Below, one piece after another: positions 18,205 to 54,977 of a stretch of 64,000 nucleotides of DNA. The notes under the pieces were generated by a model that saw only the letters and a program-made list of their open reading frames with translations, was not told where the DNA came from and made no database searches. The position numbers and the translations under genes were made by a program. Every line of letters starts with the position of its first letter. The first letter of the stretch is position 1. Location: contig CBDCJO010000002.1 of assembly GCA_965217865.1 (NCBI GenBank), forward strand, positions 1,344,001 to 1,408,000. The letters are read 5' to 3'. Source of the DNA: Candidatus Latescibacterota bacterium (lineage in GTDB: Bacteria > Latescibacterota > UBA2968 > SICM01).

Positions 18205-19731
18205 CAGCCTGTTGAAAAAGTGCGTTTATGCCAAGATGACTGTTGTCTTTCCTTGTGGTTTGGTCCTATGATATATCAGGTTCAAACTGAGAAGGGAGGA
18301 CGAGCAAATGGCAATGGGAAAACGAGGACGACAGAGACAGGAAAACCTGTTCATCGCATCGAACACTTTGGTGAAATCTCCGGGTCATCCGTTCTACGAG
18401 AAGCTGAATCAGGTATTGGGGGCGAACGGCTTCGACGAGTTCGTCGAGGGGCTTTGCCAGCGGTATTACGCTCCTCATATGGGTCGCAAGGGCATTCCGC
18501 CCGGGGTTTATTTTCGGATGCTTTTGATTGGGTATTTCGAGGGACTTGATTCGGAACGTGGGATCGAATGGCGTGTATCTGACTCGCTGACGTTGCGCCG
18601 GTTTTTGGGGTATGCCCTTGACGAACAGACCCCGGATCATTCCAGCCTGTCTCGCATCCGGCATCGGCTTCCCTTGGAAGTTCACGAAGCGGTTTTCAAG
18701 TGGATCCTGAGGGTCTTGTGCAAAGCGGGTCTGGTGAAGGGGAAGACGTTGGGCGTGGATGCTACGACACTGGAGGCCAACGCCGCGATGCGCAGCATTG
18801 TACGCCGTGACACGGGTGAAGGCTACCAGGCATTCCTTGAGAATCTGGCCAAGGCCTCGGGCATTGAAACGCCTACCCGCGAGGACTTGTCCAAGATCGA
18901 TAAGAAGCGACCGAAGAAGGGATCGAACCAGGACTGGGAGCACCCGCACGACCCGGATGCCAAGATCGCTAAGATGAAGGACGGTCGCACGCACATGGCG
19001 CACAAGGTGGAGCACGCGGTGGATCTGGACACCAATGCCATTGTGGCAGTGGCGTTGTCGGGAGCAGATGAAGGAGATACCGAGTCGTTGTCCTGGACGC
19101 TGCTCGAGGCGCAGCTCAATCTCAAGCAGGTCGCGAAGGACGAAAAAGCTGCCAAACGTTTGCACAGACAGCGTATACGGGAGGTGGTTGCGGACAAAGG
19201 ATATCATAGCAACGATGTATTGACCAGTCTGAAGCAAGGCGGCATCCGGAGTTACATTTCAGAACCGGATCGGGGACGCCGCAAGTGGAACGGCCGACGA
19301 GATGAGCAGGCCGCGGTATATGCGAATCGACGCCGGATCAAGGGAGATCGCGGCAAGGCCTTGCGCCGAAGTCGTGCAGAACGGGTGGAAAGAACCATCG
19401 CTCACACATATGATACCGGTGGCATGCGCAGGTTGCACTTGAGAGACCGCGGCAATATCCTCAAGCGTTTGCTGATCCACATCGGGGGCTGCAACCTGGC
19501 TCTGCTCATGCGCAAAGTGATGGGCGTAGGTACTCCGAAGGCCCTCCAGGACCTGGCCAAGGCCTTGCAGCGTCTACTGCTCGTCCTACAATCACGCTTT
19601 GCTGCCCTCGGTCACCTTTTTAACCTCTTATCAGCGTCTCCTGCTCAATCTCCTTACCTTGATTTATCCGACCCGCACTCCAGGCGTCTTTTCCGTTTAT
19701 GTGTGTTGAAAGGTAGTTCTTCAACGGGCTG
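18205..19731 (+). mobile_element. IS1182/IS5-like insertion sequence, copy 1 (1527 bp)
   Basis: TIRs CAGCCTGTTGAA / TTCAACGGGCTG; CTAG on both sides (18201-18204, 19732-19735); near-identical copies at 33851 and 43917. Confidence 0.92.
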
Positions 19732-19735
19732 CTAG
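18308..19735 (+). CDS. DDE transposase (DUF772-type N-terminus)
   Basis: GRKGIPP, SERGI, PDHSSLSR, GVDATT, VADKGY, RVERTIAH. Confidence 0.9.
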   Translation: MAMGKRGRQRQENLFIASNTLVKSPGHPFYEKLNQVLGANGFDEFVEGLCQRYYAPHMGRKGIPPGVYFRMLLIGYFEGLDSERGIEWRVSDSLTLRRFLGYALDEQTPDHSSLSRIRHRLPLEVHEAVFKWILRVLCKAGLVKGKTLGVDATTLEANAAMRSIVRRDTGEGYQAFLENLAKASGIETPTREDLSKIDKKRPKKGSNQDWEHPHDPDAKIAKMKDGRTHMAHKVEHAVDLDTNAIVAVALSGADEGDTESLSWTLLEAQLNLKQVAKDEKAAKRLHRQRIREVVADKGYHSNDVLTSLKQGGIRSYISEPDRGRRKWNGRRDEQAAVYANRRRIKGDRGKALRRSRAERVERTIAHTYDTGGMRRLHLRDRGNILKRLLIHIGGCNLALLMRKVMGVGTPKALQDLAKALQRLLLVLQSRFAALGHLFNLLSASPAQSPYLDLSDPHSRRLFRLCVLKGSSSTGC

Positions 19736-27819: not shown

Positions 27820-29265
27820 TTGGCACAAGGTATGATTTCAGAAACCGCCCTTCATCGGCTCAGCATTCTGATGCCGGTCTATAACGAGCAATACTTTGTG
27901 GAGCAGATCGTAGAAAGAGTCTTATCCGTTCCGCTTCCTCAGGGTATCGAGCGAGAACTTGTGATTGTGGACGACTGCTCCACAGATGGTACGCGGACTA
28001 TACTCGAACGGATTTCGAAAGAACATCCCGATGTTGTCCGGCTTCTCCTCCACGAAACGAACCAGGGAAAGGGTGCTGCCATTCGCACTGCGGTGAAAGA
28101 GGCCACGGGTGATCTCACGATCATCCAGGACGCCGATTTAGAATATGATCCGAAGGACTATGAAAAACTCCTCCAACCCATTTTGATGGGGGATGCAGAC
28201 GTTGTCTATGGATCACGTTTCGCCCCCAGTGAATATCGCCGTGTGATGTTCTTCTGGCATTCACTTGGCAACAGTTTTCTAACGACGCTATCGAATATAT
28301 TCACGGATCTGAATCTGACCGATATGGAGACGTGCTACAAGGCGACCAAAGCCAGCATCCTGAAATCGATTCCGATTCGAAGTGATCGATTCGGGATAGA
28401 ACCTGAGCTCACCGCCAAATTCGCCAAACGCGGTTGTCGTATCTATGAGGTTCCGATCACGTATCGGGGACGAACCTACGAGGAAGGCAAAAAAATCACG
28501 TGGCGGGATGGCTTGAAGGCGCTCTTTACGATCGTGTACTTCTGGGTCAAGGACGATATTTATGAGGAGCTGTACGGACACGCGATTTTATACCAGCTTT
28601 CGCAGACACATCGATTCAACACGTGGATGGCTGAGACGGTTAAACCCTGGATGGGGGATTCCGTTCTGGAGATCGGTGCGGGTCTTGGGAACCTCACCCA
28701 GAAATTAACGCCTCGCAAGTCCTACACCATCAGCGACATGGATCCTCTCCACCTGGAGTATCTGAGAAACCGGTTCAGGTTTTTTCCTTCGATGGAAGTC
28801 AGAAAAGTGGATCTCGAAAATCCGGCCGATTTTGACCCCCTGGAAGGGCGATTCGATTCCATTGTCTGCCTGAACGTTTTGGAACACGTTGAAAAGGAAG
28901 GGCAGGCGCTGGAGAATATGTACCGTTCTTTACGTCCGGGGGGCAGCCCGATCATCCTGGTTCCGCAGGGGCGGTGGCTCTACGGTTCCCTTGATACCGT
29001 TCTGGGACACTATCGGCGATACTCCCGGAAGGCGTTGATCGATCGCTGTGAACGGGCCGGGTTTACCGTTACAAGGGCCTTCTCTTTCAACCGTGTGGGG
29101 CTCTTTCCCTGGTTTTTTAATGGCAGAATCCTTCATCGAAAGAATTTCGGAAAACTCCAGTTGAAAATATACGACAGTTTTATTTGGTTGTGGCGTCTGG
29201 TCGATCGATTTTTGCCGTGGCCGGGGCTTTCAGTCATCGGGATTGCGGAAAAACCTGAGTCTTGA
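27820..29265 (+). CDS. GT2 (DPM1-like) glycosyltransferase fused to a class I SAM methyltransferase
   Basis: SILMPVYNE, VDDCSTDGT, NQGKG, QDADLEYDP, then LEIGAGLG, NVLEHV and GHYRRY; TTGACA-N17-TAGATA at 27721. Confidence 0.88.
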   Translation: MAQGMISETALHRLSILMPVYNEQYFVEQIVERVLSVPLPQGIERELVIVDDCSTDGTRTILERISKEHPDVVRLLLHETNQGKGAAIRTAVKEATGDLTIIQDADLEYDPKDYEKLLQPILMGDADVVYGSRFAPSEYRRVMFFWHSLGNSFLTTLSNIFTDLNLTDMETCYKATKASILKSIPIRSDRFGIEPELTAKFAKRGCRIYEVPITYRGRTYEEGKKITWRDGLKALFTIVYFWVKDDIYEELYGHAILYQLSQTHRFNTWMAETVKPWMGDSVLEIGAGLGNLTQKLTPRKSYTISDMDPLHLEYLRNRFRFFPSMEVRKVDLENPADFDPLEGRFDSIVCLNVLEHVEKEGQALENMYRSLRPGGSPIILVPQGRWLYGSLDTVLGHYRRYSRKALIDRCERAGFTVTRAFSFNRVGLFPWFFNGRILHRKNFGKLQLKIYDSFIWLWRLVDRFLPWPGLSVIGIAEKPES

Positions 29266-29375
29266 TTAAGTGGGGTTCACTATGGTGGTTAAAAGTGGAA
29301 TCCGGCTTTTTGGATTTTCATCATTCTTATTGCTACTGTAGGACAGTTCCTAATCCAATAGATAATGGAGAGTAT

Positions 29376-30477
29376 GTGAAGAATATTTCGACAACAAAAT
29401 ACGAATATATTAATGCCATAAGAGGTTTCGCAATCTTGGGAGTTGTCCTTGTCCATTCCTCACAATGGGTACGACCTGCATCAGATATTCTTTCCAAAAT
29501 AGCATCCGAAGGAGCACGAGGAGTACAACTGTTTTACGTAGCAAGTGCGTTAACATTATTTTTGTCAATGGCTTCACGAAAACAACAAGAAGAAAGACGT
29601 GGCCTCCTTAGTTATTTTATCAGACGTTTCTTTAGGATTGCACCCGCGTTCTACTGTGCAATAATCATTTATACTGCCTATAACGCAATGTCTGCCCATT
29701 ATTGGGCTCCAAATGGCCTTGAATGGTGGTCTATTCTTTTAACAGCATTTTTTATGCACGGGTGGCACCCGGAAACAATTACTTCAGTTGTTCCAGGTGG
29801 CTGGTCAATAGCTGTTGAAATGACTTTCTATTTGTTTACACCGTATCTTTTTTTGAAATTGAATGACATTAAGTCAACATTGATCGCGCTATTTCTATCC
29901 ATAGTTTTAACAACGAATTTTATCAATCGCTGTAATTTACTTGGTATCACCATACTATATAGATGCTCAACAATATTTAGTCAGTTCATTCTCTTATTTT
30001 TGGTTCTTCTCTCAATTGCCTGTCTTTATTTTAGGTATATTGCTCTATCATATAACTATAAAATATCCACATAGTGATAAGCATACGGCTTTCTTTCTGC
30101 TATTTGTATCAGTATTCCTTTTTGCTGCTTTCATGACTGTTGAGACGTACTCCAATTTGTTGCCAAAGCACATTCTGTATGGAGTGGCATTCCTACCCTT
30201 TTCTCTGGCCCTTCGTTACTCACCACATAGATTTCTGGTTAATAAGATCACAGTATTCATCGGCAAACTTAGTTTTAGTATTTATTTGGTTCATTTTATG
30301 GTTTTGAAAATAATGAAAAATGTGTTTTCCAGTGGTTTTGCGTTTGATGGAAACAGCGGATTTATATTGGCATTTCTCCTTGTTCTGTTATCGTCAATTT
30401 GTATTTCCTTTGTAACGCATAGGGCTGTTGAGATTCCTGGTACTAACCTTGGAAAGCATTTCGTGAAAAAGCTCTAA
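29376..30477 (+). pseudogene. Acyltransferase family 3 (OafA-like), frameshifted near 29910, AT-rich
   Basis: AIRGFAILGVVLVH, GVQLFYVAS, RRFFRIAP and WSIAVEMTFY in one frame; GKLSFSIYLVH and VEIP in the next. Confidence 0.82.
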
Positions 30478-30513
30478 CAAGGCAACTGCACTCGGACGGC
30501 AAAAACGTCGCTC
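30472..30513 (+). other. Truncated attC-like half site
   Basis: CTCTAAC overlapping the stop codon, then AAGGCAACTGCACTCGGACGGCAAAAACG; no right arm. Confidence 0.4.
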
Positions 30514-30632
30514 AAAGGATCATATCGATATCTGAAGTCCTTTCAAAAACATCATCTGTTTCTCAGAAACTCATAAATAATAGATGTTATCAGTTCAGAT
30601 TTGGGAATCGGTAAGCTCCAAAGGAAACTCCC

Positions 30633-30661
30633 TTGACAACCCAATCCAGTTGCTATAGATT
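30633..30661 (+). promoter_or_regulatory. Sigma70 promoter upstream of the tRNA fragment/HD gene/tRNA-Val
   Basis: TTGACA-N17-TAGATT. Confidence 0.65.
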
Positions 30662-30700
30662 TTATTCCCCCAATGGGGATTCGAAGTGATTATCTGTATT

Positions 30701-30721
30701 GGCGATTAGCTCAGGTGGTTA
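30701..30721 (+). repeat. 21-bp exact copy of the tRNA-Val 5' end
   Basis: GGCGATTAGCTCAGGTGGTTA is identical to 31382-31402. Confidence 0.9.
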
Positions 30722-30723
30722 TA

Positions 30724-31323
30724 TTGGAGCAACCAGTTAAGTCGATTTCGGAAACATTGCGACAAAAGGTACGGGATGAGCTGCCGGAGGTGAAGGAGAT
30801 TTCGGATTCCATGCTCCGTGAGAAGGTGGTCGAGGCCTGGGCTATGGCTCTGGATGGCAGCAGTTTTGGTGCGATTTCTGAAATTAGGCCTTCGGGAAAT
30901 CCAGATACACCGCCGTTAAAAGAGGGGACACAGACCGACCATATCCGGGGAGTGACACTGATGGCGGTGAGGATGGCAGAAGAACTGGCGGGGTTGATTC
31001 CCAGCCTGAAGGTAAACCGGGACATTCTGATCGCTGGCGCACTGTGTCATGATGTGGGTAAACCCTGGGAGTTCGACCCGAGGAACCAGGCCCGTTGGAA
31101 GGGTTCTCCTCGGGCGGCTGGATGGCCGTCGATTCGGCATCCCGGCTATGGCGTACACATCTGCCTGAGCGTGGGACTGCCCGAGGAGGTGGCACATATT
31201 GCGGGTGGTCACTCAAGAGAGGGGGAGTTGGTGGTTCGGAGCCTGGAAAATACGATTGTGCACTACGCCGATCACGGCTTCTGGCGCATCCTGGACGCTG
31301 GAGGACTTCTGGAGAAGGCATGA
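30724..31323 (+). CDS. HD-domain (HDIG-like) metal-dependent phosphohydrolase
   Basis: DHIRGV, GALCHDVGK, RHPGYG, GHS, HYADH; start uncertain (TTG 30724 or ATG 30673). Confidence 0.82.
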   Translation: MEQPVKSISETLRQKVRDELPEVKEISDSMLREKVVEAWAMALDGSSFGAISEIRPSGNPDTPPLKEGTQTDHIRGVTLMAVRMAEELAGLIPSLKVNRDILIAGALCHDVGKPWEFDPRNQARWKGSPRAAGWPSIRHPGYGVHICLSVGLPEEVAHIAGGHSREGELVVRSLENTIVHYADHGFWRILDAGGLLEKA

Positions 31324-31380
31324 AGAGAATTTGGTGTATTTGGGGTCTTAACTGATTTCTAAACAATAAGAAATAAAGGT

Positions 31381-31457
31381 GGGCGATTAGCTCAGGTGGT
31401 TAGAGTGCTTGCTTGACATGCAAGAGGTCACTGGTTCAAGTCCAGTATCGCCCACCA
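31381..31457 (+). tRNA. tRNA-Val (GAC)
   Basis: 77-nt cloverleaf; anticodon arm CTTGC-TTGACAT-GCAAG; T-loop GGTTCAAGTCC; encoded CCA. Confidence 0.97.
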
Positions 31458-31488
31458 ATTAATGTTCTGACAAAATTATTCATGAAAG

Positions 31489-31521
31489 AAAGGCTTATCC
31501 AGATTAAGGATAAGCCTTTTT
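31489..31521 (+). terminator. Terminator-like hairpin after tRNA-Val
   Basis: AAAGGCTTATCC-N8-GGATAAGCCTTTTT. Confidence 0.65.
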
Positions 31522-31652
31522 GAATTCTATTGGCGTGTAACAGGATAAGCCTTGAACCTAACGAGCGATTCCGGACGTAAAAAGGGACAATCAGTCAGTT
31601 ATCGTAAACCACGAGTTCAATAAGGAAGTGCAACACTTGGCTTTTAAAGACT

Positions 31653-33358: not shown

Positions 33359-33850
33359 TCAAGCCCGATAGAGGTATTTCTCCCCGAGATGTTCCACAAT
33401 CTTTTCTCGCGCCAGAGATACGTGATCGGGTGAAACGCTCCTCCAGGGAGATAACATTCGGCAGTATACCGGATCGAGAAAACCGGATGCCATTCCCATC
33501 AGGCGATCCATCCGCCCACTTTTATGACCCATGGACCTCATGGGATCCTTGATGTCTTTGTGGATTATCTCGAGTTTCCGTTCCCCATCGGCGATGCCTT
33601 CGGGATCGTTTTTTTCAAGGGAATCCCACAGAGCCCGGATCAGTTCAGGAAAGGCATAACTGATCCACGCAGCAAGGGAACGGGCCCCCTGATGCCACAA
33701 GCTGATAAGATTCGGCTCACCTGCAAGGATGTTGAAATCGGTTCGAACGGCCAAAAGATTTTTGACCAGTTCCGGAGAGGAGGATGTGAGTTTGGCACCG
33801 ACGATCGATGGCACCTTTTCGAGTATCCGCGGCCAGAGGTGATCCCCTAT
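33359..33850 (-). pseudogene. Dihydrodipicolinate synthase-like family C-terminal fragment truncated by an IS
   Basis: PSIVGAK..FNILAGE..GA pattern; the 5' part is replaced by the IS. Confidence 0.5.
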
Positions 33851-35377
33851 CAGCCCGTTGAAGAACTACCTTTCAACACACATAAACGGAAAAGACGCCT
33901 GGAGTGCGGGTCGGATAAATCAAGGTAAGGAGATTGAGCAGGAGACGCTGATAAGAGGTTAAAAAGGTGACCGAGGGCAGCAAAGCGTGATTGTAGGACG
34001 AGCAGTAGACGCTGCAAGGCCTTGGCCAGGTCCTGGAGGGCCTTCGGAGTACCTACGCCCATCACTTTGCGCATGAGCAGAGCCAGGTTGCAGCCCCCGA
34101 TGTGGATCAGCAAACGCTTGAGGATATTGCCGCGGTCTCTCAAGTGCAACCTGCGCATGCCACCGGTATCATATGTGTGAGCGATGGTTCTTTCCACCCG
34201 TTCTGCACGACTTCGGCGCAAGGCCTTGCCGCGATCTCCCTTGATCCGGCGTCGATTCGCATATACCGCGGCCTGCTCATCTCGTCGGCCGTTCCACTTG
34301 CGGCGTCCCCGATCCGGTTCTGAAATGTAACTCCGGATGCCGCCTTGCTTCAGACTGGTCAATACATCGTTGCTATGATATCCTTTGTCCGCAACCACCT
34401 CCCGTATACGCTGTCTGTGCAAACGTTTGGCAGCTTTTTCGTCCTTCGCGACCTGCTTGAGATTGAGCTGCGCCTCGAGCAGCGTCCAGGACAACGACTC
34501 GGTATCTCCTTCATCTGCTCCCGACAACGCCACTGCCACAATGGCATTGGTGTCCAGATCCACCGCGTGCTCCACCTTGTGCGCCATGTGCGTGCGACCG
34601 TCCTTCATCTTAGCGATCTTGGCATCCGGGTCGTGCGGGTGCTCCCAGTCCTGGTTCGATCCCTTCTTCGGTCGCTTCTTATCGATCTTGGACAAGTCCT
34701 CGCGGGTAGGCGTTTCAATGCCCGAGGCCTTGGCCAGATTCTCAAGGAATGCCTGGTAGCCTTCACCCGTGTCACGGCGTACAATGCTGCGCATCGCGGC
34801 GTTGGCCTCCAGTGTCGTAGCATCCACGCCCAACGTCTTCCCCTTCACCAGACCCGCTTTGCACAAGACCCTCAGGATCCACTTGAAAACCGCTTCGTGA
34901 ACTTCCAAGGGAAGCCGATGCCGGATGCGAGACAGGCTGGAATGATCCGGGGTCTGTTCGTCAAGGGCATACCCCAAAAACCGGCGCAACGTCAGCGAGT
35001 CAGATACACGCCATTCGATCCCACGTTCCGAATCAAGTCCCTCGAAATACCCAATCAAAAGCATCCGAAAATAAACCCCGGGCGGAATGCCCTTGCGACC
35101 CATATGAGGAGCGTAATACCGCTGGCAAAGCCCTTCGACGAACTCGTCGAACCCGTTCGCCTCCAATACCTGATTCAGCTTCTCGTAGAACGGATGACCC
35201 GGAGATTTCACCAAAGTGTTCGATGCGATGAACAGGTTTTCCTGTCTCTGTCGTCCTCGTTTTCCCATTGCCATTTGCTCGTCCTCCCTTCTCAGTTTGA
35301 ACCTGATATATCATAGGACCAAACCACAAGGAAAGACAACAGTCATCTTGGCATAAACGCACTTTTTCAACAGGCTG
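33851..35377 (-). mobile_element. IS1182/IS5-like element, copy 2 (transposase 33850-35274)
   Basis: 1527 bp, near-identical to copy 1, inverted; flanks CTAT and CTAG do not match. Confidence 0.92.
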
Positions 35378-43916: not shown

Positions 43917-45442
43917 CAGCCTGTTGAAAAAGTGCGTTTATGCCAAGATGACTGTTGTCTTTCCTTGTGGTTTGGTCCTATGATATATCAGGTTCAAACT
44001 GAGAAGGGAGGACGAGCAAATGGCAATGGGAAAACGAGGACGACAGAGACAGGAAAACCTGTTCATCGCATCGAACACTTTGGTGAAATCTCCGGGTCAT
44101 CCGTTCTACGAGAAGCTGAATCAGGTATTGGGGGCGAACGGCTTCGACGAGTTCGTCGAGGGGCTTTGCCAGCGGTATTACGCTCCTCATATGGGTCGCA
44201 AGGGCATTCCGCCCGGGGTTTATTTTCGGATGCTTTTGATTGGGTATTTCGAGGGACTTGATTCGGAACGTGGGATCGAATGGCGTGTATCTGACTCGCT
44301 GACGTTGCGCCGGTTTTTGGGGTATGCCCTTGACGAACAGACCCCGGATCATTCCAGCCTGTCTCGCATCCGGCATCGGCTTCCCTTGGAAGTTCACGAA
44401 GCGGTTTTCAAGTGGATCCTGAGGGTCTTGTGCAAAGCGGGTCTGGTGAAGGGGAAGACGTTGGGCGTGGATGCTACGACACTGGAGGCCAACGCCGCGA
44501 TGCGCAGCATTGTACGCCGTGACACGGGTGAAGGCTACCAGGCATTCCTTGAGAATCTGGCCAAGGCCTCGGGCATTGAAACGCCTACCCGCGAGGACTT
44601 GTCCAAGATCGATAAGAAGCGACCGAAGAAGGGATCGAACCAGGACTGGGAGCACCCGCACGACCCGGATGCCAAGATCGCTAAGATGAAGGACGGTCGC
44701 ACGCACATGGCGCACAAGGTGGAGCACGCGGTGGATCTGGACACCAATGCCATTGTGGCAGTGGCGTTGTCGGGAGCAGATGAAGGAGATACCGAGTCGT
44801 TGTCCTGGACGCTGCTCGAGGCGCAGCTCAATCTCAAGCAGGTCGCGAAGGACGAAAAAGCTGCCAAACGTTTGCACAGACAGCGTATACGGGAGGTGGT
44901 TGCGGACAAAGGATATCATAGCAACGATGTATTGACCAGTCTGAAGCAAGGCGGCATCCGGAGTTACATTTCAGAACCGGATCGGGGACGCCGCAAGTGG
45001 AACGGCCGACGAGATGAGCAGGCCGCGGTATATGCGAATCGACGCCGGATCAAGGGAGATCGCGGCAAGGCCTTGCGCCGAAGTCGTGCAGAACGGGTGG
45101 AAAGAACCATCGCTCACACATATGATACCGGTGGCATGCGCAGGTTGCACTTGAGAGACCGCGGCAATATCCTCAAGCGTTTGCTGATCCACATCGGGGG
45201 CTGCAACCTGGCTCTGCTCATGCGCAAAGTGATGGGCGTAGGTACTCCGAAGGCCCTCCAGGACCTGGCCAAGGCCTTGCAGCGTCTACTGCTCGTCCTA
45301 CAATCACGTTTGCTGCCCTCGGTCACCTTTTTAACCTCTTATCAGCGTCTCCTGCTCAATCTCCTTACCTTGATTTATCTGACCCGCACTCCAGGCGTCT
45401 TTTCCGTTTATGTGCGTTGAAAGGTAGTTCTTCAACGGGCTG
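43917..45442 (+). mobile_element. IS1182/IS5-like element, copy 3 (1526 bp; transposase 44020-45420 with altered C-terminus)
   Basis: ATAG duplicated on both sides; 1-bp deletion near 45308 relative to copy 1. Confidence 0.92.
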
Positions 45443-53158: not shown

Positions 53159-54445
53159 CTAATCCTTCTTCGCCGCTTGGTCGTTATGGTATGCACACAG
53201 CGACTCATCTCCCCAGCCGCCAATCTCTAATTCAGAGGACCGGATGGCGGTCTCGATCCGCTCGTGTGCATCGTCAGCATCTGCCTCGGAGACTTCATAG
53301 TGTTGCACCGCGGACTCCGCGAACGAGAAAGGCTGGATGATAGTCGTGCTGCATATTGCGCAATCACTCGTTGCCCCAAATATCTGTGCCCACCCTTCGA
53401 AATCTGTCTCACCACTTGGGTCCTCTAGTTCCTCGATGAGATCTTCAATCGTACTCGGCAGCGAGCTGAGCGCTTCGCGCATTGCGAGCGGCTCAAGCTC
53501 GCGCCACTCTCGTTGCGCCTCTTTGCGAACCCACCTAATTGCCTTGTCTTCGCCTTCTGCAGCCGCGTACAGTGCAGCGAGAAAGAAGTCCTCATTATTC
53601 CTGATATTTACCCCAAAGATTGATCGGTAGACTTTCTCGACCCTGTCACGAAATCCTGACCGCATGAGAAGCTTGGGGAATTCCTCAAGATTGGCAATGT
53701 GGAGGCGGTCGCAGAAGTTGAGAGCCCGCCTGACCACGTAGTCGGCTGGCGAACGACCAAAGACCTTCCTGAAGATGTATGCCAGACCCTCCTCCGAAAC
53801 GCTGCCCAAGTCTGGTTGTTGCGCAGGGGAGGCAGTTTCTCGTGTTACCCTTGAGCGAATGTCGCTTGCGATCCTGTCGGCGGCTGCTAATACCTCAGCG
53901 AGGTCTTTGGCCCGAGCGCGGAGGTCCTCAGGAAGATTCGGCTGTTTGTAGATGTTGTCGTGCGAGAGCCCGGCCCAAGCGTGCTGGAGGCGGGAAAGGA
54001 TTTGTACTTCGCAAGGCACGGGGTCCGAAAGGAGATGAGACTCGCCAAGCCACAACTCCAGTCTAAAGTTTACATGGAGCGCCCTGTAGCCCTCTTCATT
54101 GGGCTGCTTGATGAAATCCTGTACATCAAAGTCGCCCCAAAGGGTCGGTAGGACCTCCTTCAAGAGTTCGGAAAATCGGTAGACATCTTCGACATTATTG
54201 CAGACCACTCGCCCTCCGATGAGATCTCCGTAGCGCGACAACGCTTGATCCGCGTCCCATTTGTTTTTCTCGGCCTTTCGCTGTAGGCTGGAAAGATCCT
54301 TAATTCGGAGGCTGTGAATTTCCGCACGCACGAGGTTCTTGTCTTCAATCCTTGCGATGACCGACTTAAGGATCGACCGTAGCCGCTTCTTCGCACGACA
54401 AAGTACTGGGCCCTTACCCTCGTAAATTTCTCGAAGCTCAGCCAT
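53159..54445 (-). CDS. RelA/SpoT nucleotidyltransferase (small alarmone synthetase-like) domain protein with C-terminal extension
   Basis: RIKDLSSL..K, DLIGGRVVC, GYRALH, EVQI.S.LQHAWA..SH..IYK; start set at MAELRE. Confidence 0.78.
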   Translation of the reverse strand: MAELREIYEGKGPVLCRAKKRLRSILKSVIARIEDKNLVRAEIHSLRIKDLSSLQRKAEKNKWDADQALSRYGDLIGGRVVCNNVEDVYRFSELLKEVLPTLWGDFDVQDFIKQPNEEGYRALHVNFRLELWLGESHLLSDPVPCEVQILSRLQHAWAGLSHDNIYKQPNLPEDLRARAKDLAEVLAAADRIASDIRSRVTRETASPAQQPDLGSVSEEGLAYIFRKVFGRSPADYVVRRALNFCDRLHIANLEEFPKLLMRSGFRDRVEKVYRSIFGVNIRNNEDFFLAALYAAAEGEDKAIRWVRKEAQREWRELEPLAMREALSSLPSTIEDLIEELEDPSGETDFEGWAQIFGATSDCAICSTTIIQPFSFAESAVQHYEVSEADADDAHERIETAIRSSELEIGGWGDESLCAYHNDQAAKKD

Positions 54446-54450
54446 ATCTC

Positions 54451-54977
54451 TTAGAACCTGTCCTGTAGTCCTGCGTTTGGAGTCTTCGCGATCAAATCGG
54501 CTTGCGCTTTCTCGGAGATGTCGATGCCTACCCACTGACGGTCCAATGAAACACCCGGCATTTCGTCCAAATATCTTTTGAGTCTTTCTCCTGGACGCTG
54601 TTGAACAATGAGGCCCTGTTCGTAGGCTTCCTGCATTCGTTTTCGTGTCCAACGCCAAACTCTGGTTACTCCGAGGAATTCATAAGTCAAATTGGGGTGG
54701 TCCGTGTTCGGGTTCGCCAGATTGCGCGGCGATAGAGCCGGTCTATAACCTTGTCAAGACATGAGCCTTGCGGAGCTTGGGCGGCATGGCGTCTGTGTCG
54801 TAGAGCGCATTGAGTGCCGAGTTTGAGAACAAGGCGCGCGCATCGCGAACCCCTTGAGATAGCCTTTCGATCTGGTTTGTTTGAGCGGTCGTCATATCCG
54901 GCGGCTCGCTGTTCATGCCCCGGAGGATGGTCCAGGTTGTCGCCTGTCCATACTGTCTTGTCTACGAAGTTGGCCAC
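54451..54977 (-). pseudogene. Site-specific N6/N4 DNA methyltransferase remnant with multiple deletions
   Basis: VWTGDNLD start, YEFLGV..WRW..RM, YLDEMPGV joined directly to RQWVGIDIS. Confidence 0.7.

Follow-up and report, generated by a model that had tools for sequence, protein, structure and literature searches.

The 681-bp segment that lies between a displaced 5' fragment of tRNA-Val(GAC) and the complete gene is probably, if far from certainly, the relic of a tyrosine-integrase island in the 5'-fragment orientation, shrunken by deletion until one cargo gene, encoding an HD phosphohydrolase, was left. A deletion relic fits better than an active minimal element, because neither an integrase nor a recognisable arm site, an empty allele, a circle, or an HD homologue at tRNA-Val was seen. 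Under the proposed course of events, integration would have separated the restored tRNA from its promoter, and a deletion would then have taken the integrase and all cargo except the HD gene, so that nt 22 of the tRNA came to lie 2 nt ahead of the old ribosome-binding site (RBS). The stub seen today may be the trimmed remainder of a longer fragment, such as that in a genome of the same class (G042), or nt 22 may mark the true D-loop crossover. One transcript would now carry the HD gene and the tRNA, with RNase P freeing the latter, and the native promoter would again serve the tRNA, through the HD gene. Finally, the D-loop motif AGGTGGT may have become the Shine-Dalgarno (SD) sequence for a TTG at 30724, and the decay of the old RBS and ATG into five extra codons would have followed, a step that we take seriously without calling it probable. 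Positions refer to the window, i.e., the whole stretch of 64,000 nucleotides that was analysed.

The displaced tRNA fragment and its promoter

The complete tRNA-Val(GAC) occupies 31381–31457 on the plus strand, as do all features of the locus described here; it was identified by a tRNA call and by Rfam, encodes its CCA, and is the sole GAC gene among the 50 tRNAs of the genome. An exact 21-mer at 30701–30721, 681 bp ahead of the full gene, repeats nt 2–22 of this tRNA as an attL-like displaced 5' fragment, and the identity ends at the end of the D-loop. The 21-mer occurs at two places in the whole 6.43-Mb genome, the stub and the full tRNA. In run X8, which comes from a third study and carries a diverged allele, a G at 30700 (among the matches listed) extends the repeat to 22 bp, starting from mature nt 1. 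When 5'-anchored displaced tRNA fragments of at least 16 nt were sought, the stub stood alone among 20 rows, and the next-longest 5'-anchored fragment within 150 kb of any tRNA measured 13 nt (9 same-side and 5 control rows). A Val fragment pattern ending at the D-loop was likewise confined to one of 132 class genomes, namely the genome under study (G000). Between the stub and the full tRNA lies a single enzyme gene, that of the HD protein (30724–31323), followed by a 57-bp AT-rich spacer (31324–31380, 30% GC), and a terminator scan placed an intrinsic terminator-like hairpin at 31487–31521. The promoter, the 21-bp copy, the HD open reading frame, the full tRNA, and the hairpin that a preliminary description had named are all present, and its coordinates hold. 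Contigs from runs X1 (29600–31408) and X3 (29799–31407), which belong to two studies, either of which may be the window's own source, and which extend 27–28 nt into the tRNA, short of the 31 nt set as the rule for bridging, showed 0 differences to the window; thus, an assembly artefact at the locus is unlikely.

A sigma70-type promoter (TTGACA-17-TAGATT, 10/12 match) at 30633–30661 ends 38 nt before the stub and is likely the native tRNA-Val(GAC) promoter; the intervening 38-nt leader (30662–30699) differs between strains. Comparable sites were present 8–74 nt upstream in 20 of the 51 tRNA/tmRNA genes of the genome. The full tRNA, by contrast, had no promoter-like site within 300 nt upstream, and no site anywhere in the insert scored above 7/12. 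Among class relatives, 10 of 11 Val(GAC) loci carried a TTGAC-type promoter, with leaders of 22–36 nt in seven and an identical TAGATT −10 element in three, and the 70 nt ahead of the stub matched the upstream regions of two of the 11 at p < 0.05, a modest similarity. The earlier view of this element as the tRNA promoter is supported by its resemblance to the relatives' native promoters and by the lack of a promoter-like site at the full tRNA. A similar generic promoter was also found at one HD homologue (L003). The scan detected no plus-strand terminator-like site between the promoter and the tRNA, the first one following the tRNA, and we infer that the HD gene and the tRNA are carried on one transcript. 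None of the six RNA runs listed, in which only 0.05 of the words were present, holds the HD gene.

The flanks of the locus are AT-rich on both sides, with several transposase genes downstream. The window holds three DUF772-type transposase genes, as well as a RelA/SpoT-domain open reading frame amid further insertion-sequence (IS) genes (18308–19735, 33850–35274, 44020–45420, and 53159–54658). An AT-rich acyltransferase-3 gene occupies two overlapping frames at 29262–30477, a region where run X8 differs in length by one base (at 29912). Right after its stop, the sequence at 30474–30510, which we take to resemble the start of an integron attC site, is present as a single copy in the genome. At 30542–30577, the window aligns locally with the long tRNA-Val(GAC) leader of genome G022 and shares an exact 14-mer with it (shuffle p 0.0015, first spotted by eye); this similarity is possibly what is left of an earlier event at tRNA-Val(GAC). 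A 31-bp sequence at 31610–31640 recurs exactly at four other places in the genome, and a near copy of it lies just past tRNA-Val(TAC). Elsewhere in the genome, displaced 3' fragments of tRNA-Pro genes (19–42 nt; C2:5245056–5245072 and C2:579128–579144), one of them 4.5 kb after tRNA-Pro(CGG), represent ordinary 3'-type island ends.

The HD gene and its start

The HD frame is unbroken and exceeded the cut-offs of both PF01966 (45.5 bits) and TIGR00277 (34.6 bits). Residues H68, H104, D105, and D178, which we take to be the metal ligands of the HD fold, are invariant across 45 sequences. The structure model (pLDDT 93.3) adopts an HD fold, and the nearest fold was that of YhaM (Foldseek E 8e-4, TM 0.59), with all fold matches distant. 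The protein thus shares the fold and the conserved His/Asp residues of HD/HDIG phosphohydrolases (PF01966, TIGR00277; YhaM fold), from which it differs as a member of a stand-alone 194-aa family in which no solved close relative was found and whose distant members often follow TRAP transporter genes. Such transporter genes adjoined at least 5 of the 14 HD loci with neighbours scanned (on the basis of 32 of the 53 open reading frames listed), which suggests a metabolite or nucleotide hydrolase. A total of 1525 homologues were found, and the named close ones came from Handelsmanbacteria and Latescibacterota records, which points to a host that probably belongs to this phylum. The family is accessory and patchy, occurring in 22 of 132 class genomes and in neither of the two genomes of the same family (91–95% complete). 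With a positive control included, 7 of 48 homologue loci had a tRNA call, none of them Val, and none of 21 class HD loci, a set that partly overlaps with the 48, had a tRNA within 1.5 kb. The preliminary description had proposed looking for HD homologues between tRNA 5' repeats; none of the 48 and none of the 21 loci lay at tRNA-Val, and the two closest homologues (84–86%; L065 and L066) sit downstream of tRNA-Thr(CGT). In one Chloroflexota record without a tRNA call at the locus, a tyrosine recombinase gene directly follows the HD homologue (L051:6745–7758).

Regarding the start of the gene, the first residue of 97 of 120 homologues falls in the K23 column, which corresponds to AAG 30739, and 19 of the 21 class loci carry an ATG or GTG at precisely this place, where all six members of the 90% cluster read VK. 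By these alignments, the ancestral HD ATG corresponds to AAG 30739, and the homologues do not extend N-terminally through the tRNA repeat; such an extension is what the preliminary description had named as refuting its proposal. The same description had called the gene intact, which stands for the open reading frame and needs qualifying for the start, since the ATG of the homologues reads AAG here. An ungapped alignment pairs the 18 nt from 30724 (30724–30741, now LEQPVK) with the RBS and ATG of L065 (11/18, shuffle p 0.0013) and L066 (12/18, p 0.0003), whereas the stub region did not align with either (p 0.62 and 0.12, respectively). This contrast suggests that the foreign DNA likely begins approximately 2 nt after the stub, just ahead of the old RBS, and that the latter likely reads now as the codons LEQPV.

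In the stub, AGGTGG (30713–30718; the candidate SD, AGGTGGT, spans 30713–30719) precedes the in-frame TTG 30724 by 5 nt, and the gene would encode 199 aa from this codon. TTG 30724 is the only standard start common to five of six strain-level relatives; ATG 30673, in the leader, is missing in X8, and GTG 30694 is missing in this genome. ATG 30673 was rejected as the HD start, as it lacks an SD and reads ATT in X8. Gene callers placed the start at four different positions across six near-identical sequences, and annotation is therefore affected. Pairing with the genome's own 16S tail reached −8.2 kcal/mol before TTG 30724, a strength matched by 16 of 300 random 15-mers (0.053), compared with −5.6 before GTT 30736 or AAG 30739, −0.7 before ATG 30673, and −9.8 to −11.7 in four of four homologues. 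A predicted fold pairs the D-loop SD with the leader (z −1.57). Cluster member P0001 has the same VK start and unrelated sequence upstream; its differing N-terminus was considered as an IS end and discarded, as it had no match in G000. A nearly invariant Gly (41 of 44 in its column) is Arg in this HD protein.

Taken together, the lost ATG and the TTG common to five of six relatives lend support, short of proof, to the earlier idea that the D-loop of the stub was reused as an RBS for translation from TTG 30724, and the borderline SD energy, the stem between SD and leader, the upstream sequence of P0001, and the Gly-to-Arg change count against it; we therefore treat this reuse as a possibility only slightly less credible than its contrary. 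It is somewhat unlikely that the HD gene is instead a recent, untranslated pseudogene with an incidental SD-like match, a reading that concerns expression alone and is compatible with any origin. The loss of the ancestral ATG, the erosion of the old RBS, and an SD that is borderline and predicted to be paired would agree with such a pseudogene. The frame, in turn, is unbroken across members of the 90% cluster that are up to 9/188 residues apart, although for the six members this holds partly by construction, as broken copies would escape listing. Also against a pseudogene, the branch to this lineage, part of which may predate the insertion, carried approximately 43 synonymous versus 21 non-synonymous changes on 141 and 435 sites, respectively. 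The dN/dS ratio relative to L065 and L066 was 0.12.

Origin of the segment

We scanned 168 genomes of the phylum for the 5' 14-mer of the tRNA and read 32 loci, chosen mainly from genomes with more matches than the family norm, with most three-hit genomes of families f2 and f10 outside this choice. One displaced Val(GAC) fragment was found among the loci read, in G042. In this genome, the native promoter is followed by Val(GAC) nt 1–42 and, 80 nt later, by a 23-nt arm repeat. A second copy of this repeat lies between the complete tRNA-Val(GAC), 130 nt away, and a 380-aa tyrosine integrase (PF00589), which ends 369 nt ahead of the tRNA. The two halves (L095/L127 and L128; G042:C1:117680 and 3809013, minus strand) are separated by 3.7 Mb, and the site is therefore rearranged or misassembled; contamination of this genome stands at 12%. 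The G042 integrase had matches at E 1e-25 in 7 of the 168 genomes. In G074, a member of the same clade directly adjoins Val(GAC) at its 3' end, and in G007 a broken copy lies upstream of tRNA-Arg(TCT) (L141). As a lead only, G007 also contains, on the opposite strand at a distance of 1.2 Mb, a degenerate Arg(TCT) 5' stub whose end falls close to the D-loop (L150). Judging by the G042 and G074 sites, tRNA-Val(GAC) serves integrases as a target within the class, the 5' orientation included. The preliminary description had regarded duplication of tRNA 5' ends as less common than that of 3' ends; such sites are less unusual than this implied, as 5'-end and D-loop sites are both in print and G042 has a 5'-fragment site at the same tRNA. 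Among other loci, L111 (G059) has a 22-nt tandem copy of the tRNA-Val(GAC) 3' end directly after the gene, and in genus g4 (L013–L024, L081, and L082) the flanks of tRNA-Val(GAC) are mosaics of common modules in varying orders, representing a gene-accretion hotspot.

Signs of present mobility were sought in four runs, none of which contained an empty allele or a circle joint in its contigs, which drop rare variants, among the matches listed. Class relatives carry the promoter and tRNA without the insert, none of these being of the same genus. None of the 18 PF00589 matches of the genome falls in the window, and no orthologue of the G042 integrase was present in G000. The spacer contains one weak direct repeat (8/9), equalled in 73 of 2000 shuffles, and was compared with 11 att arms or leaders, including the arms of G042 and G007, without any significant similarity; it is possibly a remnant of the right end of the island. 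On the left, the 2 nt between the stub and the old RBS leave no room for an arm site. Cluster members of the upstream glycosyltransferase and the downstream methyltransferase apparently occur in the same three assemblies as HD cluster members P0122, P0123, and P0125; this recurrence of the flanking genes suggests that the locus is fixed across strains, including a member that differs by 9/188 residues. In a viral collection, the D-loop pattern had one match, a complete phage tRNA, while the longer fragment pattern had no match and the integrase had one distant match. For the 15 loci tried, no synteny of Val(GAC) neighbours with G000 was detected near the window. The AT-rich leaders of G022, G026, and G059 were dismissed as island arms, as none matches the spacer and the G022 leader is common to the promoter side of G042. 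A tRNA intron (group I or II) was likewise rejected, as Rfam was significant for the tRNA only and the downstream tRNA copy is complete, and so was an integron cassette, proposed from a GTTAAG/CTTAAC inverted pair seen by eye, in which GTTAAG is explained by the ATG-to-AAG start mutation.

A deletion relic is favoured by a fragment on the correct side and strand that begins at mature nt 1 in X8, the contrast between the two promoter regions, the start shift, the accessory nature of the HD family, the integrase sites in G042, G074, and G007, the AT-rich flanks with transposase genes downstream, and an equal stub extent at the arg2 islands of Klebsiella. It is weakened by the fact that no larger ancestral island with this HD gene was found and no empty allele seen, that the D-loop-ending pattern is confined to one of 132 class genomes, that the G042 fragment ends at nt 42 rather than nt 22 and its island is split by 3.7 Mb, that the spacer resembles no att arm among those compared, and that G000 lacks the G042 integrase orthologue. 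A capture in one step without an integrase would need no large intermediate: DNA consisting of HD gene, spacer, and tRNA could have entered by homologous recombination on the right and, at nt 22 on its left side, by illegitimate recombination; alternatively, a small circle with the HD gene could have inserted via the 22-bp identity. The left junction 2 nt before the old RBS and the lack of visible arm sites agree with such a capture, which nevertheless calls for a donor with the HD gene just upstream of tRNA-Val; no such arrangement occurred in the overlapping sets of 48 and 21 loci, the closest homologues lying downstream of tRNA-Thr(CGT) instead, and we consider it unlikely.

Slightly less likely still is that the tRNA gene was duplicated locally in tandem, on either side of the HD gene, and that nt 23–77 of the first copy were then lost. 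A single deletion would yield the same end state, and tandem Val(CAC) genes do exist in G134, but the identity extends no further upstream than mature nt 1, the leader of one copy is unrelated to that of the other, no promoter precedes the second copy, and none of the relatives' loci examined contained a tandem Val(GAC) pair, which the preliminary description had named as evidence against its own reading. The decayed tandem tRNA that it offered as the alternative largely merges with the deletion relic. Its main proposal, a minimal mobile element, fared worse, given the spacer without a known att arm and the four runs in which, among the matches listed, neither the empty allele nor the 681-bp circle that it had suggested seeking was seen in contigs. 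In the corresponding form considered here, a non-autonomous cassette would be moved in trans by an integrase acting at the D-loop and would depend on the tRNA promoter and the D-loop SD for its expression. The near-perfect repeat, the 18 PF00589 matches, and the direct repeat in the spacer could be accommodated by such a cassette. It is nevertheless very improbable: contigs, an insensitive source, gave no joint among the matches listed in four of four runs, three other assemblies seem to have the locus fixed between the same neighbouring genes, 2 nt leave no room for an arm, and no second instance was found in 132 class genomes or the viral collection.

Significance and comparison with known systems

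If a deletion relic, the locus shows with unusual clarity where the decay of an island can end, and its small size and bareness put it beyond the reach of island finders that rely on an integrase. The domestication of a cargo gene may be visible here as well, with the stub providing a promoter link and perhaps an RBS, while the old RBS turns into coding sequence. We give little credence to the broader reading that a D-loop stub is a full expression platform, with host promoter and SD, for sub-kb integrase-less cassettes moved in trans, to which the HD gene would have adapted by giving up its own RBS and ATG; if true, a tRNA gene would have been turned into a capture site comparable to that of an integron. 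As one event in one lineage, the locus carries modest general weight unless more cases are found. The 5'-fragment geometry is already known, and the reuse of a D-loop as an RBS is the one feature for which we found no published case, i.e., no tRNA attachment fragment serving as an RBS, in the open-access literature.

According to the accessible part of the Islander report (PMC4383910), 159 of 3919 islands displace a 5' tRNA fragment, and an integrase and a length of 2–200 kb are required. Our locus shares with these islands a tRNA end fragment upstream of an intact gene on the same strand, with foreign DNA in between, and the fragment lies on the expected side; in contrast, it has no integrase and measures 681 bp. 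Because it fails on integrase and size, it is not filed as a 5'-fragment tDNA island, although it is alike in geometry. The subsites named in that part of the report are the anticodon, T-loop, and junction subsites, a list from which the D-loop is absent. The site in G042 shares the same tRNA, a 5' fragment behind the native promoter, and the full tRNA at the other end of the island, and differs in its fragment (nt 1–42), its integrase, and its 23-nt arm repeats. In Klebsiella pneumoniae, arg2 islands with integrases of clade I.d use the 5' acceptor half, D-stem, and D-loop as their site, as described in the accessible text of the preprint (bioRxiv 10.1101/2020.11.02.365908). The insertion upstream of a tRNA and the repeat of 5' acceptor strand, D-stem, and D-loop (here nt 1/2–22) are common to both, whereas the arg2 islands involve tRNA-Arg, are defined by an integrase, which is lacking here (clade I.d or otherwise), and form a set of 3.5–133 kb for which that text describes no cargo gene translated from the stub. 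Finally, ICEKp1 uses the host tRNA-asn promoter, as reported in the accessible part of its description (PMC13023037), and thus likewise has an island gene transcribed from a host tRNA promoter; its int gene follows an intact tRNA, whereas the HD gene precedes the tRNA and follows the stub, from which it may have borrowed its SD as well.
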